38,414 nucleotides of DNA from an uncultured Gemmatimonadota bacterium (lineage in GTDB: Bacteria > GCA-2686955): assembly GCA_964490075.1 (NCBI GenBank), contig CAZBBK010000060.1:1-38414 (forward strand), read 5' to 3'. The notes beneath the pieces are model-generated. The model was not told the DNA's origin. It saw only the letters and a program-made list of their open reading frames with translations, and searched no databases. A program made the translations under genes and the position numbers. Of this stretch, positions 1 to 6,125 are shown piece by piece; position 1 is the stretch's first letter; each line of letters begins with the position of its first letter.

Positions 1-11
1 CCGCGAAGGGC

Positions 12-38
12 CAGCCTTTCCCCCACGGGGAAAGGCTG
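12..38. other. perfect 12-bp-stem / 3-nt-loop hairpin (CAGCCTTTCCCC cac GGGGAAAGGCTG)
   Basis: Read directly: 12-23 is the exact reverse complement of 27-38. No U-run on either strand, so not a classical intrinsic terminator. Lies ~360 bp downstream of the intI stop. Confidence 0.4.
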
Positions 39-396
39 CCCGAAGTCGGCCGAACAACTCTTAGACTGACCTCCATACAAACTTGGGCGACTTTGGAACG
101 TCAGTGTAGCACGCATCGCGGGTCCCGACGCCGAGCGCCAGCGAATCCTCCGTGTCGCTGCTGCCTCGGCGCCGTGAACGGACGAAGCCGAGCCTGGTGC
201 CAAGGGCTGGGTGCACGACGATCGTGGGCCGGCTCTGACTGCGTCGGGTTCCGGTCCCCCAGCGGATCTGATCGAAGGGAATTCCGGCTCGAATTCGCGG
301 CGATGGGCTGCGGGGTTCTGCAGTGTACAGCGATCTGCTGGGGGCCGCCTGGACCGATGTGCTGATGGACGGGAAAATCGCCGCGGCCGCAGCCAC

Positions 397-2109
397 TCAC
401 TGGTCTCGGTCGCTCGAAACGTCGAATCTCCGCTCCCATTGGTGCTCACATTCCGCGCTGTGATCGAGAGTCCATACAACACTCTGCTCCATGAAGTACG
501 AGCGATCGTTCGCGCCGCCGACCGGCCAGGTCCTCCGAAAACGCCAAATGGGCCGAGTGCCCTCACCTTGAGCGTCGGCGCCTGGTCCGATCGTCGCAGA
601 CCGGGCGCCACGGCCTTCCCCGCCCGGCGGCGAATTCGAGATTGCCGACTCCGTCGACCCTGCCCCTCGGTGGGGCGGACTCGGAGCGGACGGAGATCGT
701 GGCGCAGGGATGGGGTCTGCTCGCACATCGGATCCAGCGTCTGGCGCGCGGTCCCCGGAGCGTTGCGGCCTTGGGCCATCGATCGGTTCCCGTCGTTCTC
801 GCGGCGCGGCGGAAGGGTGGAACTGGGTGTCGCCCACGATCTCCGTTGCGCCTGGCTCCTCGTCCTCATGACGTGGCCACCCCGCTCGCGATCTCTGCCC
901 CTCCACTCCGCGCCGCCCGATCGCCGGCTCCCTCTGGGGGAAGACCGATGGCGGTGCAGCTGCCCCGGGCAAAGACCCCACTCCGGGCGACAGACTACCG
1001 GGAAGAAGCGCTCGCGTATCAATCGCAATCGCGCCAGGAGGCAACACCGGCATGCCGTCCGCCGGGCTGCGCACCGCGAGGGGCCCCCGGCCGAGCACAT
1101 GCGTGTAGACCATGGTCGTGCGCAGATCGGCGTGCCCAAGCAACTCTTGAACCGTGCGGATGTCGTAGCCGTCCTCGAGCAGATGCGTCGCGAAGCTGTG
1201 ACGAAGGGTGTGGCAGCTCGCCTTCTTCTGCAGATCCGCCGCTCGCACCGCGTGCGCCATCGCGCGCTGCACGACGGTCTCGTGCAGATGATGTCGGCGC
1301 AGCTCCCCCGTCTGCCGATGATGGTAACGGCGCGTCGCCGGGAACACCCATTGCCACTTCCAGGAGCGACCGATGTCTGGGAACTTACGGGCCAATGCGT
1401 CGGGAATCTCGACCCAGCCCGCGCCCTGCTCGAGATCTCGCTCATGCTGAGCACGAACCGCCTCCATGTGCTGTGCCAGAGGGATCTGCGCCGCGCCGGC
1501 AAGCAGTGTGACTCGGTCTTTGTTGCCCTTGCCTCCACGAACCGTGAGCTGTCGCGCGGCGATGTCTACGTCCTTGATCCGCAGGCGGAGGCCTTCGAGC
1601 AGACGCAAGCCTCCGCCATAGAGGAGCAAAGCGACCAGGCGCACCGACCCCTCGAGCCGCATGATCACCGTCGCAACCTCCTCGCGTGAGAGCACCACCG
1701 GGAGGTGCTGGGCGCGCTTGGCCCGCACCAGATCCTCGAAGTCCTCCAGCTCGATCTCCAGTACGTTCCGGCACAGGAAGAGCAGCGCCGCGAGCGCCTG
1801 ATTCTGAGTCGAGGCTGAGACCTGTGCCTCGACTGCCAGTGCCGAGATGAACTGTGTCACCTCCTCGGCGTCGATCCGGTCTAGGTCCGACCACCCGCGA
1901 AAGTGGAGGAATCGCCGAACCCACTGCCAGTACGCCTTCTCGGTCTTCCGGCTGTAGTGGCGGATGCGGATCGCCGCGCGAAAGGCCTCTCGAAGCCCGG
2001 GCTCGCCGCCTGCGCTCCCGGTGCTGCCCGGTTCCATCGGCACCCGCCGCGGATTCCTGCGATCCGCGCCTTCCACCCACCGCTTGCGACTCTGCGACTC
2101 GGGCCTCAT
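397..2109 (-). CDS. intI: integron-type tyrosine recombinase (IntI family) with a ~215-aa low-complexity C-terminal extension
   Basis: Translation contains [22 protein letters not shown], the catalytic R (GLRLLEG), K (RGGKGNKDR), [12 protein letters not shown] and [16 protein letters not shown], plus the IntI-specific extra segment [22 protein letters not shown]...RRHHLHE. Strong SD (GGAGAGGAAACCAGAG ATG) at 2109. Alternative start at 2037. No stop where IntI proteins normally end (~1045), so the frame continues to 397. Confidence 0.8.
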
Positions 2110-2146
2110 CTCTGGTTTCCTCTCCGCCCGCCAAGGGTCCGAAACC

Positions 2147-2161
2147 GACCCACGGTGGGTC
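2147..2161 (-). terminator. 15-bp palindrome GACCCACgGTGGGTC followed by GGTTTC on the minus strand; weak terminator of the 131-aa gene
   Basis: Perfect 7-bp arms. Lies 20 bp downstream of the stop at 2181. A short T-containing tail follows on the minus strand. Confidence 0.3.
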
Positions 2162-2180
2162 GCGTTCCGACACCCCGGGA

Positions 2181-2576
2181 TTACGGAATAGACGATGCAT
2201 CGGATGCCTCTCGGCGGCTCCGTGGTCCCCTAGCCTCGGGCTCTCCGAATGCGTCCAGGCGGAGCTGTGCGCGTCGCGCGGCCAACGCCTCGGTCAGCGA
2301 CTCGATGTTCTCTCGCGGTTCGACGCCGTGGCGCCCCGCAGCGAGCAACAACGCGCGAAGCGTGATGGCCGGCCGCGCCGTCTGGCGCTCCCCACACCTG
2401 CGGCAGCGGAGCTCGGGTCCGTGCAGTCCGCGCCCTTCGCGCTCTACGTGAAGTCGCTCTTCGAGGCGCCGGCGCAGTGTCACGAGATCTTCCCAGCGCA
2501 TCGGGGAGCGCCACTGATCACGCAAGATGTCGACGAGCGCGGCGTACCAGATCCGCGTCACCGCCATGCCGCTCAT
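2181..2576 (-). CDS. hypothetical 131-aa protein with a C-x2-C pair (LRCRRCGE)
   Basis: Good SD (GCGAGGAGAAccgacATG). Charged, non-low-complexity composition, unlike neighbouring spurious frames. Own hairpin downstream. No family recognised. Confidence 0.55.
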
Positions 2577-2690
2577 GTCGGTTCTCCTCGCGATCTCCTG
2601 CTCCTTGTTCCCATCGGAGTCGGTTCATGATCCCTCGTCTGCAAGGAGCACGCCAGGCGAACTCCCGGCTCGGGTCTCCAGAAGGTGGAC

Positions 2691-3029
2691 TCAGATCTGG
2701 TGACGCGTCTCCGCACCTCCAATGGTCCTCCCAAGCTCCGTCAACGGTGCACCCAACGTCAGCAAGGTGCGAAACACGAGATCCAAAGAGACCGTTGGGT
2801 CAGCGGCCTCCATCTTGGCTACCTGCGACCGGCTTGACCTCACCAGCCGCGCGACCTCTGTCTGCGTCATGCTCCGCGAGGCTCGCCAATCCCTGACCGC
2901 TGCGGCCGGGGCGATCTTCACGTTCAAGAAGGCCCGTTCCTCTGCCGTCAGATCGAGGAAGTCCTCTGCGCTACCGATCTTCCATCCAGCCTTCTCCAGT
3001 CTCCTCTTCTTGTCTTCTTCTATGCCCAT
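2691..3029 (-). CDS. higA: HigA-like XRE-family HTH antitoxin (112 aa)
   Basis: MGIEEDKKRRLEKAGWKIGSAEDFLDLTAEERAFLNVK...MTQTEVARLVRSSRSQVAKMEAADPTVSLDLVFRTLLTLGAPL is the typical HigA layout: N-terminal extension followed by an XRE helix-turn-helix. ATG at 3029..3027. GC clearly lower than surrounding genes. Confidence 0.6.
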   Translation of the reverse strand: MGIEEDKKRRLEKAGWKIGSAEDFLDLTAEERAFLNVKIAPAAAVRDWRASRSMTQTEVARLVRSSRSQVAKMEAADPTVSLDLVFRTLLTLGAPLTELGRTIGGAETRHQI

Positions 3030-3230
3030 GCTCGCTCGTTGTAGATCCGCGTCATGGGCGCGCAGCCGCTGTCTGCTTGAATCGAGTACAGCTTTCGGGG
3101 TCTTGCCGGTCTTCCTGCTGAACACCGCCGCAATGACGATGGCGTCTTCGTCCATTCGATAGATGATCCTCCGACTCTGGTCGCCATCCTGAATTCGCAA
3201 CTCGCGGCAGCGCGGCGCCTGCGCTGACAT
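3030..3230 (-). pseudogene. remnant of a RelE/ParE-fold HigB toxin (C-terminal ~50 aa only), fused in frame to higA
   Basis: ELRIQDGDQSRRIIYRMDEDAIVIAAVFSRKTGKTPKAVLDSSRQRLRAH matches the ELR...YR...F.KKTQKTP core of Gp49/HigB toxins. The ~55-aa N-terminal half is absent: upstream residues are unrelated and overlap a DNA repeat. No stop codon lies between this segment and the higA ATG (LQRAS-MGIEE). Confidence 0.45.
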
Positions 3231-3282
3231 GAGACGAGAATGCGGCAGGCCCGGCACAGCGATCCTCCACGCAGGAAGCGCG

Positions 3283-3428
3283 GCCGGCACGCGAAGAAGA
3301 GCTGTCGAGACCACCTTCCTACCGCGCCTGGAACCCGGAGGCCCGCGGGCTCCCGCTGGGTCCGCGGTTCTTCGCGGAGTGCGTCGCTCGAGAGGCGCTC
3401 TGTCGAAACCCCTGATCCGGTCCAATCA
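3283..3428. repeat. copy 1 of a ~130-bp repeated element (inverted copy at 37958..38088)
   Basis: The reverse complement of 3283-3408 aligns with 37958-38088 at roughly 85% identity, e.g. CGACGCACTCCGCGA(A/G)GAACCGCGG(A/G)CCCAGCGGGAG(C/T)CCGCGGGCC. Conservation is equal in all reading frames, so it is non-coding. About 17-bp imperfect direct repeats (TCGACAG.GC.CT.TTCG-like) flank an ~80-bp core. Confidence 0.55.
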
Positions 3429-3430
3429 CC

Positions 3431-3446
3431 TTTGCCCGCGGGCAAA
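3431..3446. other. perfect 16-bp palindrome TTTGCCCGCGGGCAAA, 15 bp after the DUF1016 stop
   Basis: Self-complementary as read. No U-run follows on either strand. Confidence 0.4.
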
Positions 3447-3460
3447 CATCTCCCGCTCCG

Positions 3461-4216
3461 CTACTCGGCCCGCCTCTCCAGCAGCCTCCGAACGATCTCC
3501 GCCGGATCCGCCCCCTCTTCGAGCACGAAGGCGACCACGTGCCCGGAGCCGCCCGCCAGCGGCTCGATCAGCCCCTCGAAGGGCGCCTCGTCCGCCGCCC
3601 GTTTCAGGGCGTTGAAGTGGTGGCGCGCCCGCACCGCCACGGGCTGGTTCGGCTTGCGCCCGCGGCGCGAAAGCGGCCGGCCGAGCAGCTCCAGGTGCTG
3701 GTCGGCCAGCCATTGGTCGAACTGCGGCCGCGACATCTCGACGAGATCGTCGGCCTGCTCGGCCACAGCGGCGCGGGCAGCCGGTTCGCGCAGCAGCGGC
3801 GTGAGCTGGCGGGCGCGGCTCCAGGGCAGGCGCTCGATCTGGGGCAGCAGCTCCGCGTCGGGGTCGGCGCCGTGGAACTCGTGGGCCCGGTAGAGGGTGG
3901 AGGCGTCGATGCCGGTGTCCTCCGCCAGGCTCCTGAAGATCCGTCCGCCGTAGCGCCGGCGGCGATCGCCCTGCGCCAGGAAGCGGTCGATGCGCTTGCC
4001 GATCTCCCAGTAGATCTTCACCATCGCGGCAAAGCGGCTCCGGCAATGGCTCGCCAGCTCGACGTAGCCCTTTTCCGCCTGCAGCTCCGGGTCGGCGTTG
4101 CCGCGCGCCTGGTGGACGATGCTGCGATCCAACGAGCGACCGTTTCCGGCGACCTCCCTCGAGCCGGAAACGGGCTCCGCGACTGCGTCAGCGTTGCGGT
4201 CCGTGACGTCTGCCAT
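3461..4216 (-). CDS. DUF1016 (YhcG-family) N-terminal-domain protein lacking the PD-(D/E)xK nuclease half
   Basis: KIYWEIGKRIDRFL...RRRYGGRIFRSLAEDTGIDASTLYRAHEFH and LPWSRARQLTPLL match the YWxIG...RAxYG...LSxxL...NLxxMRxFY and LSWSHY..LL motifs of the DUF1016 N domain. Only 251 aa, and the C-terminal 80 aa are unrelated to PD-(D/E)xK. SD with A6 tract (CGAAAAAAGGGGCGAACAATG) at 4216. Confidence 0.6.
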   Translation of the reverse strand: MADVTDRNADAVAEPVSGSREVAGNGRSLDRSIVHQARGNADPELQAEKGYVELASHCRSRFAAMVKIYWEIGKRIDRFLAQGDRRRRYGGRIFRSLAEDTGIDASTLYRAHEFHGADPDAELLPQIERLPWSRARQLTPLLREPAARAAVAEQADDLVEMSRPQFDQWLADQHLELLGRPLSRRGRKPNQPVAVRARHHFNALKRAADEAPFEGLIEPLAGGSGHVVAFVLEEGADPAEIVRRLLERRAE

Positions 4217-4499
4217 GTTCGCCCCTTTTTTCGTGCGGCCGCGGGCGCACCCCCCGCTGGACGTGGTCCCAATGGGCCGCGCGTAGAGAAGAATAACAAC
4301 GCCCCACCCCGTGCTGTTGCTTCACCGACAAGAAAAGGTCCGTCCCTGAGAAGAAGTGACGACATTTCGTCGGAACAGGGCGCCAAAATCGTGGGCGCGG
4401 CCCGTCCGTCCATTTTCCTCGACGGCGCTACACTATTTCGCGCTGCCGGCGCAGCCCAAAGGGACAGGCTCTCCCGGTCCGGGCTTTTCCCGACTCCCG

Positions 4500-6125
4500 T
4501 TACCCCTTCGTCCGAAACGCCCGCGCCCCTCCCAGGCCCAGCTTCTGCATCCGGCTGCGCAGAGTGCTCGGGTTGATCCCGAGCAGCTCGGCCGAGCCGC
4601 CGGCCCCGTACAGCTTGCCGCCGGTCCGCTCCAGCGCCCGCTCGATGTGTTGTCGCTCCGCGTCGCGCAGAGTCGGGAAGGGCTGCTCGTCTTCGAGCAA
4701 AGCGCTGGGTGTCCGGCCCGGCCCCCGCATCACCCCTGCCGCGTCCGCTTCCGCGCCCCCTTCACCGCCCCGGTCGCTCGGCCGGTCCCCATCCAACCCC
4801 AGCTCCAACTCCGGTCCGGAGCTCAAGATCGTCGCCCGCTCCAGCAGGTTGATCAGCTCGCGCACGTTGCCGGGCCAGTCACGCGCCCGCAGCCGCGCCC
4901 CAACCCCCGCGCCGAGCCGCCAGGGACCGCGTCCGGTGCGCCGCGCCAGCTGCTCCAAGAACCCCTCGGCGATCGCCTCGATGTCATCGGGACGCTCGCG
5001 GAGCGCCGGCATCTCGATCGGGAAGACCGCCAGGCGATAATAGAGGTCCTGCCGAAAGCGCTGCTCCGCCACCGCTCGCGGCAGATCGATGTTGGTGGCG
5101 GCGATCACCCGCACGTCGACGCGCAGGCTGCGGTCGCTGCCGACCGGCTCGAAGCAGCCCTCTTGCAGGGCGCGCAGCAGCTTGGGCTGCAGCTCGACCG
5201 GCATCTCCCCGATCTCGTCCAGGAAGAGGGTGCCGCCGTTGGCCGCCTGGAAGCGGCCGATGCGCGCCTTGGTGGCGCCCGAGAAGGCGCCTTTGACGTG
5301 GCCGAAGAGCTCGCTCTCGATCAGGTTGGCCGGCAGGGCGGCGCAGTTGATGCCGATCAGCGGACGGGCGGCGCGCGGGCTCCAGCCGTGGATGGCGCTG
5401 GCCAGCACCTCTTTGCCGGTGCCGGTCTCGCCGGTGATCAGCACCGGGGTGTCGGCGGCGGCCACGGCGCGCGCGGTGCGCACGATCAGGGTCATGGCGG
5501 GGCTGCGGTTGGCCTCCATCATGGCGCAGGCGTCGCGGCGCTCCTCGACCCGCTCCCCCAGGAGCCGGTTCTGCTCCTTGAGCTGCTGGCTCAACCGGCT
5601 CAGCAGCGCCGACTGCTCGCCGTAGCTCATCGCCATCGCCAGGAGCTTGCCGAACACGTCGGCCAGGTCCACCACCTGGGCGGGATACACAGCGCAGACA
5701 CGCCGGTCGAAGGTCATGATCCCGAGGGGACCGGAATGCGCCCGCAGGGGAACCACCATGCAGGAATGCCCGTGCGGCAGGTCGAGCACGCCGTCGAAAG
5801 CGTCGCCATCGCCGTCGCGATGATCGTGCTCGGTGAATGGCCGCGCATGATCCTGCTCCAGGAGCGCGCGAATGCTGGGGAAGCGCTCCAGCTCCAGCAG
5901 GTGGCGCCGCACCGCCGGACCGGCCAGCGACCCGCGCGCCACCCGTACGTGCAGCGCGTCGCCGCGCAGCTCCATGATGGTCGCCAGGTCGTAGGGGACC
6001 AACCGGCCCAGAGTCTCCATCGCCTGGCCCAGCAATTCGTTCACCTGCTCGACCGACGTGGCCAGCCCGGCCGCCTGACGCAGATCGCGGGTCAGATCGA
6101 GAATCGTCTTCGAGGATGGAACCAT
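4500..6125 (-). CDS. sigma54-dependent transcriptional activator, GAF-AAA+-Fis-HTH architecture, no receiver domain
   Basis: [15 protein letters not shown] (Walker A), [15 protein letters not shown] (GAFTGA-type sigma54 contact loop), C-terminal [21 protein letters not shown] (Fis-type HTH), N-terminal ~170-aa GAF-like domain. SD GGGAGGGAGAC ATG at 6125. Alternative ATG at 6140. Confidence 0.85.

Follow-up and report, generated by a model that had tools for sequence, protein, structure and literature searches.

The window, a 38,414-nt stretch of DNA analysed over its whole length, very probably opens within an inverted-integrase (Treponema denticola-type) integron, chromosomal and sedentary. 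According to the proposed organisation, the integrase gene intI (397-2109, minus strand) would be transcribed toward its own attI at 53-66(-), and cassettes would enter at G|TT and pile up on the strand of intI, downstream of the gene, which would place the array to the left of position 53, mostly past the contig end. The apparent lack of an array is best explained by the ending of the contig 54 nt after attI. Among the three explanations that a preliminary description of the locus had offered for its gene order, that of a reversed integrase as in Treponema, its array lying past the window start, is the best supported, by the downstream co-oriented arrays of relatives, by the attI core and by the polymorphism at 52/53. 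The features of the region are listed in Table 1.

Table 1. Features of the intI region, in window coordinates
Feature	Position	Strand	Remarks
Variant A, first 54 nt past the crossover	1-54	(-)	presumed first-cassette start or native attI flank
Hairpin in variant A	9-41		12-15-bp stem; z=-2.93
attI core (candidate)	53-66	(-)	L box GTCTAAG (66-60), spacer AGTT (59-56), crossover G(55)|TT(54-53)
Possible Pc -10-like hexamer TACACT	103-108	(-)	56 nt upstream of the crossover
Rest of intI-attI spacer	67-396	(-)	no ORF with a family match
Read-through tail of the intI ORF, 216 codons	397-1050	(-)	non-coding-like spacer between IntI core and attI
intI ORF	397-2109	(-)	570 aa from ATG at 2109
intI, alternative start	ATG at 2037	(-)	546 aa; JGI callers
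IntI-homologous core	1051-1986	(-)
Palindrome between the 131-aa ORF and the intI start	2137-2171	.	17-nt arms, 82 % complementary
131-aa orphan ORF	2181-2576	(-)	no family match; sole database match is itself; no attC behind; identical in all contigs
In-frame fusion of a degenerate higB with higA	2691-3257	(-)	Gp49 matched only at profile positions 38-89 of 90, HTH_3 also matched; GC 0.61
251-aa ORF, weak DUF1016_N match	3461-4216	(-)	PF17761, 30.2 bits, below gathering threshold (32.8); GC3 0.91, host-gene-like

Integron integrase

Judged from its sequence, the ORF at 397-2109(-) encodes a real integron integrase. Its product scored 413.4 bits against the integron integrase profile TIGR02249 (cut-off 265) over aa 42-353, and only 141 and 135 bits against XerC and XerD, both far under their own cut-offs, so that its earlier assignment to the integron type is confirmed. 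The Pfam domains Phage_int_SAM_4 and Phage_integrase were identified, and VchIntIA (PDB 2A3V) could be aligned over aa 44-350 (E=7e-70). In this alignment all catalytic residues (R, K, H, R, H and Y) are conserved, the motifs GLRL, GKGNKDR, HTLRHS, GHADL and VYTHV corresponding to R135, K160, H267/R270, H293 and Y302, and the insertion ending in RRHHLHE aligns without gaps to the IntI-specific segment of VchIntIA (ALKEKYPNAPYEFRWHYLFPS...RRHHMNE). Both the insertion distinguishing the protein from XerCD and the intact active site had been proposed from the letters alone. The IntI-specific segment, located between patches II and III, contacts the extrahelical bases of attC. The ORF has GC1/2/3 values of 0.73/0.46/0.81. 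IntI is at most 65-67 % identical to any other protein in the database, and a homologue search for closer relatives showing an array returned none above 67 % identity.

Cassette arrays of related loci

A covariance model of attC (R1) was built from 31 sites found among the 80 closest IntI relatives; 93 % of its cells pair, and its covariation score is 0.384 vs 0.134 in shuffles. On the 80 relative loci and L001, a further contig of the window's own locus, the model gave 185 matches and told the strands apart (about 70 vs 24 bits). No attC was found by it in the 38-kb window, where the best match (12.8 bits, E=0.18) lies inside higA; the reported absence of attC thus holds for the window, and canonically oriented sites elsewhere in the 38 kb were not found either. 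The one window match of a scan combining a regular expression with folding (2751-2800, in higA) was rejected as a bare 7-bp inverted repeat, and a search of the entire window with Rfam at gathering thresholds returned nothing.

Of the 80 relatives, 33 carry an attC array on the strand of intI, downstream of the gene, and six have the divergent upstream layout. The distance from intI to the first attC is 289-5234 nt in relatives, and in one relative (L092) three co-oriented genes are each followed by an attC. In a neighbour-joining tree of 81 IntI sequences, calculated without support values, the window groups with L069, L031, L004 and L009, and all loci of known geometry in this clade are of the same-strand type (L069 with seven and L031 with four same-strand attC), while most of the loci with divergent arrays cluster elsewhere. 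Another point is that the contig ends within 300 nt of intI in 19 of the 80 relatives on the downstream side vs 7 on the upstream side.

attI site and population variation

In the reaction catalysed by IntI, attI is double-stranded and recombines with the attC of a circular cassette, of which the bottom strand takes part in folded form, and the incoming cassette enters right after the G of the crossover. The motif RYYYAA-N5-GTT occurs only once in the window on either strand, at 53-66(-), that is downstream of intI, which ends at 397, and on the same minus strand. It was found at +100 to +350 after intI in eight same-strand relatives out of 33 (expectation 0.04, P~2e-16), for example as ACTTAAG-AGTT-G|TTAGCC in L077 and GCCTAAA-TCAT-G|TTCGGC in L076. 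The variant A R box of the window, GTTCGGC, is one position off GTTRRRY, and the same box is present in L076 and L031. This stretch is recognisable by its sequence as a candidate attI core. The statement that the locus has no recognisable attI was therefore wrong, given that the motif is unique in the window and enriched in relatives and that alleles diverge right after its GTT. For the clade as a whole, a RYYYAA-N5-G|TT core 130-320 nt after intI may serve as a usable attI marker.

The last of these points comes from a comparison of 13 independent contigs of the locus, which are essentially identical: seven, recovered in five samples of JGI and two of ENA, match the window at 100.000 %, and another three at 99.2-100 %. 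Eleven contigs (the window and ten others) reach the crossover. Directly after G|TT the contigs split into two unrelated sequences, the window's own in eight and another in two of ten contigs: variant A in the window, L002, L003, L084-L087 and L089, and variant B (TTGAACGGAACCCCC...) in L001 and L088. The contigs are identical up to position 53 and divergent immediately past GTT. They end 27-193 nt past the switch, every crossover-reaching contig breaking within 193 nt, and the sequence available past the crossover, 193 nt for variant A and 118 nt for variant B, yielded no attC. Exact-match scans with a junction 22-mer and with the distal end of variant A gave no match each in a JGI metagenome collection, which evidently lacks the source metagenomes. 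The two-allele split fits the presence of different first cassettes in one population, and a switch at G|TT within a 100 % identical backbone represents population evidence for environmental cassette turnover at this site. In the source organism a cassette array would be expected to follow attI.

Region between intI and attI

One might suppose that the locus is an In0-like or decaying platform, consisting of intI and attI with no array and perhaps with a crippled integrase, and that the polymorphism at 52/53 is a single old indel or other rearrangement. This is unlikely, although several observations agree with it. No attC was found in any available sequence of the organism. The usual stop of intI has been lost, leaving a tail of 216 codons that is absent both from the 80 relatives, where the stop lies 0-51 codons past the homology end in all 80, and from the best 120 IntI homologues, which are 314-406 aa long; this tail could impair the integrase. 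Two relatives, L011 and L021, have no attC at all despite 10 kb of sequence on either side, and the terminator-like 63-nt hairpin opening variant A (GTTCGGCC...GGCCGAAC) could be native flank. However, two alleles that switch exactly at the G|TT of the sole attI-type motif are the product to be expected from IntI-mediated insertion or excision, all 11 crossover-reaching contigs break no more than 193 nt past the crossover, as happens at variable arrays, and In0-like loci account for only two of about 41 relatives with classifiable geometry. The reading as an inverted-integrase integron is preferred, with an integrase that is probably still active in spite of its read-through tail.

The attI core is located 992 nt past the end of IntI homology vs 130-317 nt in relatives, and much of this stretch of about 1 kb is translated as a tail of 216 aa because the normal stop is missing. 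The codon-position GC of the tail is flat (GC1/2/3 of 0.72/0.65/0.67). No Pfam match was obtained for any long ORF in all frames of 53-1050, and a database search with the 216-aa tail as query found no homologue. Folded as RNA, 67-1050 has no excess structure (z=+0.77), and a perfect 13-nt inverted repeat (690-702/834-846) folded as DNA is likewise unstructured (z=-0.43). Comparison of 1-1060 with the 80 relative loci by blastn and tblastx gave noise only. It is very unlikely that the stretch represents a functional C-terminal extension of IntI or an unrecognised regulatory element, or that the variant A hairpin is an ORF-less structured cassette or a substrate for recombination of reversed polarity instead of a simple terminator.

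The expression of cassettes is driven by a promoter upstream of attI or results from transcription running on out of intI. In the integron proposed here, a promoter would sit in the intI-attI spacer. A hexamer of the form TAnACn is found 55-59 nt upstream of the crossover in the window and several relatives, a recurrence that was not significant in a k-mer test, and the TACACT at 103-108(-) might be a Pc -10-like element. A scan of 1-4600 for sigma-70 promoters and terminators gave nothing above chance.

It is highly improbable that the 52/53 switch arose as an artefact of assembly or marks where an unrelated mobile element (an IS, for instance) ends, with the integrase being a lone gene picked up by an accessory island. 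Both alleles are known from contig ends only, the window and L001 each running 52 nt past the switch, and a hairpin stands at the end of many contigs; but both alleles recur in independent assemblies from different pipelines (JGI, ENA and Logan), ending 27-193 nt past the switch, the tails past the crossover have no other match in the window or among the loci, and the chance of a random breakpoint falling on the sole attI-type motif is roughly 1e-5.

Upstream neighbour genes

The three adjacent ORFs (2181-2576, 2691-3257/3425 and 3461-4216) lie on the same strand as intI and read toward it, as had been described. The second is indeed a remnant of higB, with an N-terminally degenerate HigB in frame with HigA. 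For the third, labelled a DUF1016 fragment, a match to DUF1016_N is present, although below the Pfam threshold. These genes had been regarded as a small-gene island resembling a cassette array, with structured spacers and lower GC. In the spacers 2110-2180, 2577-2690, 3231-3460 and 4217-4499 no attC match was obtained even at E<=10 with filters off, and R''/R' cores were absent from all upstream spacers. Folding z-scores against shuffles were -0.95 (around 2137-2171), -1.96 and +0.62 for the three spacers first pointed out and -0.15 for 4217-4360. The spacers thus fold like shuffles, and only the palindrome at 2137-2171, with its 17-nt arms, is a real feature; it may be a putative terminator or operator. 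A LexA-type reading of this palindrome was dropped, its half-site spacing being unlike that of known LexA boxes. The lower GC is marginal for the island (0.670 vs 0.686 for the whole window; 17 % of equal-sized stretches are as low) and clear for higBA alone (0.61).

An intact higBA homologue pair is found inside a cassette of L029, the one relative with same-strand attC sites upstream of intI, and homologues also occur in L040 and L045, inside their array regions. With the low GC of higBA, this could suggest that the genes of 2110-4499 form a cassette array that was rearranged or inverted, with attC sites no longer recognisable. However, the similarity to the L029 cassette ends at the coding sequence, the flanks being unlike, the GC3 of the DUF1016_N gene is host-like, the GC of the island is within normal spread, and the region is invariant in the 13 contigs, the opposite side of intI being the polymorphic one; together with the absent attC and the unstructured spacers, this largely refutes a rearranged array, which is extremely improbable. 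The upstream genes (131-aa orphan, higB'-higA and DUF1016_N) are flanking chromosomal or accessory neighbours, not cassettes, higB'-higA at least not demonstrably one.

Comparison with known integrons

In Treponema, integrons have an intI whose transcription runs in the direction of attI, and in T. brennaborense the R box of attI is found about 215 nt past intI (PMC3607928). The literature recognises the 'inverted integrase integron' as a type (PMC13323075, PMC3575428), and PMC3575428 cites Boucher et al. 2007 for an 'inverted integrase group'. The geometry that had been called non-canonical is normal for a known group (PMC3607928, PMC13323075), and the apparent anomaly of neighbours reading the wrong way becomes known biology, the usual inverted-integrase layout.

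The locus resembles these integrons in that intI is transcribed toward attI with the R box downstream, that IntI belongs to the same-strand clade, that relatives carry downstream same-strand arrays, and that it is chromosomal, beside housekeeping genes (PEPCK, SodB and AhpC). It differs from them in the distance of attI from the end of IntI (about 1 kb vs about 130-320 nt), in an intI ORF that is 216 codons longer and in an array lying outside the available sequence. The inverted-integrase clade is large and dominates environmental phyla, including Gemmatimonadota, Acidobacteriota, Actinomycetota and the former Deltaproteobacteria. The IntI of the window and VchIntIA (PDB 2A3V), which is IntI4 from the superintegron of Vibrio cholerae, belong to the same family and share the catalytic residues and the attC-recognising insertion, but the Vibrio integron has the canonical divergent arrangement of intI, attI and array, whereas the present locus is co-directional.

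Contigs of such organisms routinely break at attI, as do 19 of the 80 relatives and all contigs of this locus that reach attI, and therefore many metagenomic calls of an integrase without attC are truncation artefacts. In the classification of IntegronFinder, In0 is an integron integrase without attC (PMC4889954), and from the window contig alone a tool would make this call. Unlike In0 elements, the locus has a missing attC that is best explained by the contig end 54 nt after attI, and its attI junction is polymorphic in the population.

Integron integrase and its extended reading frame

The product of intI scores 413.4 bits against the NCBIfam model TIGR02249 'integron integrase' (curated cut-off 265; aa 42-353 matched), while the XerC and XerD models reach 141 and 135 bits on the same ORF, both far under their own cut-offs. 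Pfam matches correspond to SAM-like and catalytic integrase domains, and aa 44-350 align with the Vibrio cholerae integrase VchIntIA (PDB 2A3V; E=7e-70), with the catalytic R, K, H, R, H and Y kept, the IntI-specific segment (...RRHHLHE) matched gap-free and the core complete up to the C-terminal VRSP motif. Thus, the preliminary description was correct in naming this enzyme an integron-type recombinase, rather than a generic or Xer one. Its best database homologue shares at most 65-67% identity. The integron is adjoined by genes of PEPCK, SodB, AhpC and a sigma-54 activator in a high-GC chromosome.

In all 80 of the closest IntI relatives a stop codon is found 0-51 codons past the end of homology, and the best 120 database homologues are 314-406 aa long. 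In the window the usual stop is missing, and the frame stays open for another 216 codons. This tail has no coding signature, its GC1/2/3 being flat (0.72/0.65/0.67). No match was found by Pfam in any of its frames, by Rfam on the window with the tail included, or by a homologue search with the 216 aa, and folding gave no structure beyond expectation. The tail is real sequence and not an assembly error, since independent assemblies carry it identically.

Features of the integron locus and candidate attI cores of four relatives (coordinates refer to the window unless a locus is named)
Feature	Position	Strand	Remarks
Variant A hairpin	1-54 plus 11 nt beyond; L087:6762-6824 (approx.)		GTTCGGCC-GACTTCG-GGCAGCCTTTCCCC-GTG-GGGGAAAGGCTGGCC-CTTCGC-GGCCGAAC
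TACACT	103-108	-	56 nt upstream of the crossover
intI ORF	397-2109	-	570 aa
Read-through tail of intI	397-1050	-	
Palindrome	2137-2171		core CGACCCAC-G-GTGGGTCG; 28 nt upstream of the intI ATG
131-aa ORF	2181-2576	-	same strand as intI
higB'-higA	2691-3257	-	same strand as intI
DUF1016_N gene	3461-4216	-	same strand as intI
Candidate attI core	L077		ACTTAAG-AGTT-G|TTAGCC
Candidate attI core	L076		GCCTAAA-TCAT-G|TTCGGC
Candidate attI core	L069		ATTCAAT-GTAC-G|TTATGC
Candidate attI core	L065		GCCTAAT-CCTT-G|TTAGGT

Array layout in related loci

The relatives are the 80 loci with the most similar IntI (48-63% identity), each GTDB species being represented by one genome, and belong to Gemmatimonadota, Acidobacteriota, 'Deltaproteobacteria', Actinomycetota, Treponema, Chlorobaculum and other groups. 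A covariance model, R1, was built from 31 attC sites of arrays of these relatives. In its alignment 93.3% of cells pair, and covariation is 0.384 versus 0.134 in shuffles, dropping to 0.05-0.07 when pairing partners are slid. R1 proved sensitive and able to discriminate between strands: on the 80 loci and L001, another contig of the window's own locus, it gave 185 matches, scoring about 70 bits on the top strand versus about 24 on the bottom one.

According to R1, attC arrays lie downstream of intI and on its strand in 33 loci, while canonical divergent arrays upstream were found in six (Beta-/Gammaproteobacteria, Nitrospinota, Verrucomicrobia, Cyanobacteria). Two loci (L011 and L021) have no attC despite 10 kb on either side, and one (L029) has same-strand attC upstream of intI. 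A further relative with 63% identical IntI (L092) carries three co-oriented genes after intI, with a same-strand attC behind each. In a neighbour-joining tree without bootstrap, the window IntI groups with those of L069, L031, L004 and L009; all loci of known geometry in this clade are same-strand, and most divergent-array loci cluster elsewhere.

L029 (Acidobacteria; 209-1636, 3130-4065) has three such same-strand attC upstream of intI, including a reversed higBA cassette, which is the arrangement imagined for the window in the preliminary description. These sites could form the tail of another array, or the locus could hold tandem integrons.

Candidate attI and two alleles

In an inverted integron attI is expected downstream of intI, here toward window position 1. 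Exact-protein look-ups yielded ten other contigs of the locus, from JGI (five metagenomes), ENA (several assemblies) and Logan (one assembly). Their source samples are JGI 3300009128, 3300013118, 3300013119, 3300009008 and 3300009378, SRR8062346, and the SAMN102318xx/102319xx set. Seven of the contigs match the window at 100.000% identity over as much as 12.6 kb, and the remaining three at 99.2-100%. On the intI strand, all contigs reaching the crossover match the window through ...GGTCAGTCTAAGAGTTGTT (position 53). Past this point the window and eight contigs continue with CGGCCGACTTCGGGCAGCC... (variant A), and L001 and L088 with the unrelated GAACGGAACCCCCTTTGGGG... (variant B); neither tail had a match elsewhere in the analysed data.

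The switch lies exactly behind a GTT that follows GTCTAAG-AGTT (whole core at 53-66), so that the L box is separated from G|TT by a spacer of 4 nt. Across the two strands of the 38-kb window, RYYYAA-N5-GTT has a single occurrence, at the switch point. The candidate attI cores of relatives, such as L077, L076, L069 and L065, are built in the same way. The exact motif was found at +100..+350 after intI in eight of the 33 same-strand loci, where the background rate would give 0.04 (P about 2e-16). Variant A has an unusual R box, GTTCGGC, which L031 attC sites use as R'/R'' and which is also present in the L076 attI. Due to the long tail of intI, the candidate attI is 992 nt past the IntI end, compared with 130-317 nt for the candidate cores of relatives.

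Integron recombination crosses over at G|TT. Two cassettes at one attI are thus expected to be identical through ...GTT and to diverge at the base behind it, as observed, and the switch within near-identical contigs of one locus fits the insertion of two different cassettes. An empty attI flank could account for one of the alleles.

Directly past the crossover, variant A starts with a 63-nt hairpin, whose base, GTTCGGCC/GGCCGAAC, forms an R-box-like duplex of polarity GTT...AAC, opposite to that of attC; R1 did not match it. A terminator is one possible role, an ORF-less element another. The TACACT hexamer could act as the -10 element of a cassette promoter Pc. It recurs at -55 to -59 in several relatives, and the window shares a TAnACn, 55-65 nt before the crossover, with L008, L015, L027, L055, L065 and L012; a k-mer test was not significant.

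All contigs reaching the crossover stop 27-193 nt past it, which is expected assembler behaviour at a strain-variable array. Among the 80 relatives, the contig breaks off within 300 nt of intI on its downstream side in 19 cases and on its upstream side in seven, so that truncation at attI probably explains many metagenomic calls of an 'integrase without attC'. R1 detected no attC in the 193 nt of variant A or the 118 nt of variant B that reach farthest past the crossover, as would be expected if the first cassette of the array that we infer holds a gene.

Genes upstream of intI

The three same-strand genes upstream of intI had been proposed as a possible cassette island of lower GC with structured spacers. 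With filters off, the best R1 match in the whole 38-kb window had 12.8 bits (E=0.18) and was a bare 7-bp inverted repeat within higA, not attC; no well-formed attC, canonical or otherwise, was found anywhere in the window, and at E<=10 nothing was found in any of the spacers. Their folding shows no excess over dinucleotide shuffles (z = -0.95, -1.96, +0.62 and -0.15). The island GC is 0.670 versus 0.686 overall, 17% of equal-sized windows being equally low; only higBA (0.61) is clearly lower, and the DUF1016_N gene is host-like (GC3 0.91). A cassette array in this island is thereby made very unlikely. The preliminary description is partly confirmed: it was right on the recombinase, on the direction of the genes and on the lack of attC, and its claims of structured spacers, of a distinct GC and of no recognisable attI were not borne out.

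In the higBA gene, an N-terminally degenerate HigB has lost its stop and continues in frame into an intact HigA, which looks like a decayed toxin-antitoxin module retaining the antitoxin/regulator alone. An intact homologous pair is located within an L029 cassette, where nucleotide similarity ends at the coding sequence, and homologues occur in the L040 and L045 array regions. Among 5.8 billion proteins the 131-aa ORF, which holds one CxxC, has itself as its only match; its coding signal is weak (GC1/2/3 0.73/0.56/0.77), and it may not be a real gene. The near-perfect palindrome between it and intI could be an intI operator, or a terminator belonging to the ORF before intI.

Comparison with known integrons

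Same-strand arrays in relatives, together with the attI-type core and allele switch toward the window start, favour the Treponema-like reversed integrase, one of the explanations offered earlier. The locus is very likely a reversed, Treponema-like integron with its array beyond the window start. The relatives with same-strand arrays are the known 'inverted integrase' group, in whose Treponema members intI is read toward attI (PMC3607928), and which is recognised in reviews (PMC3575428) and as a type in current IntegronFinder-based surveys (PMC13323075). The window locus is a further example of this already well-known kind of integron, with the long intI-attI spacer and the read-through tail as a minor peculiarity.
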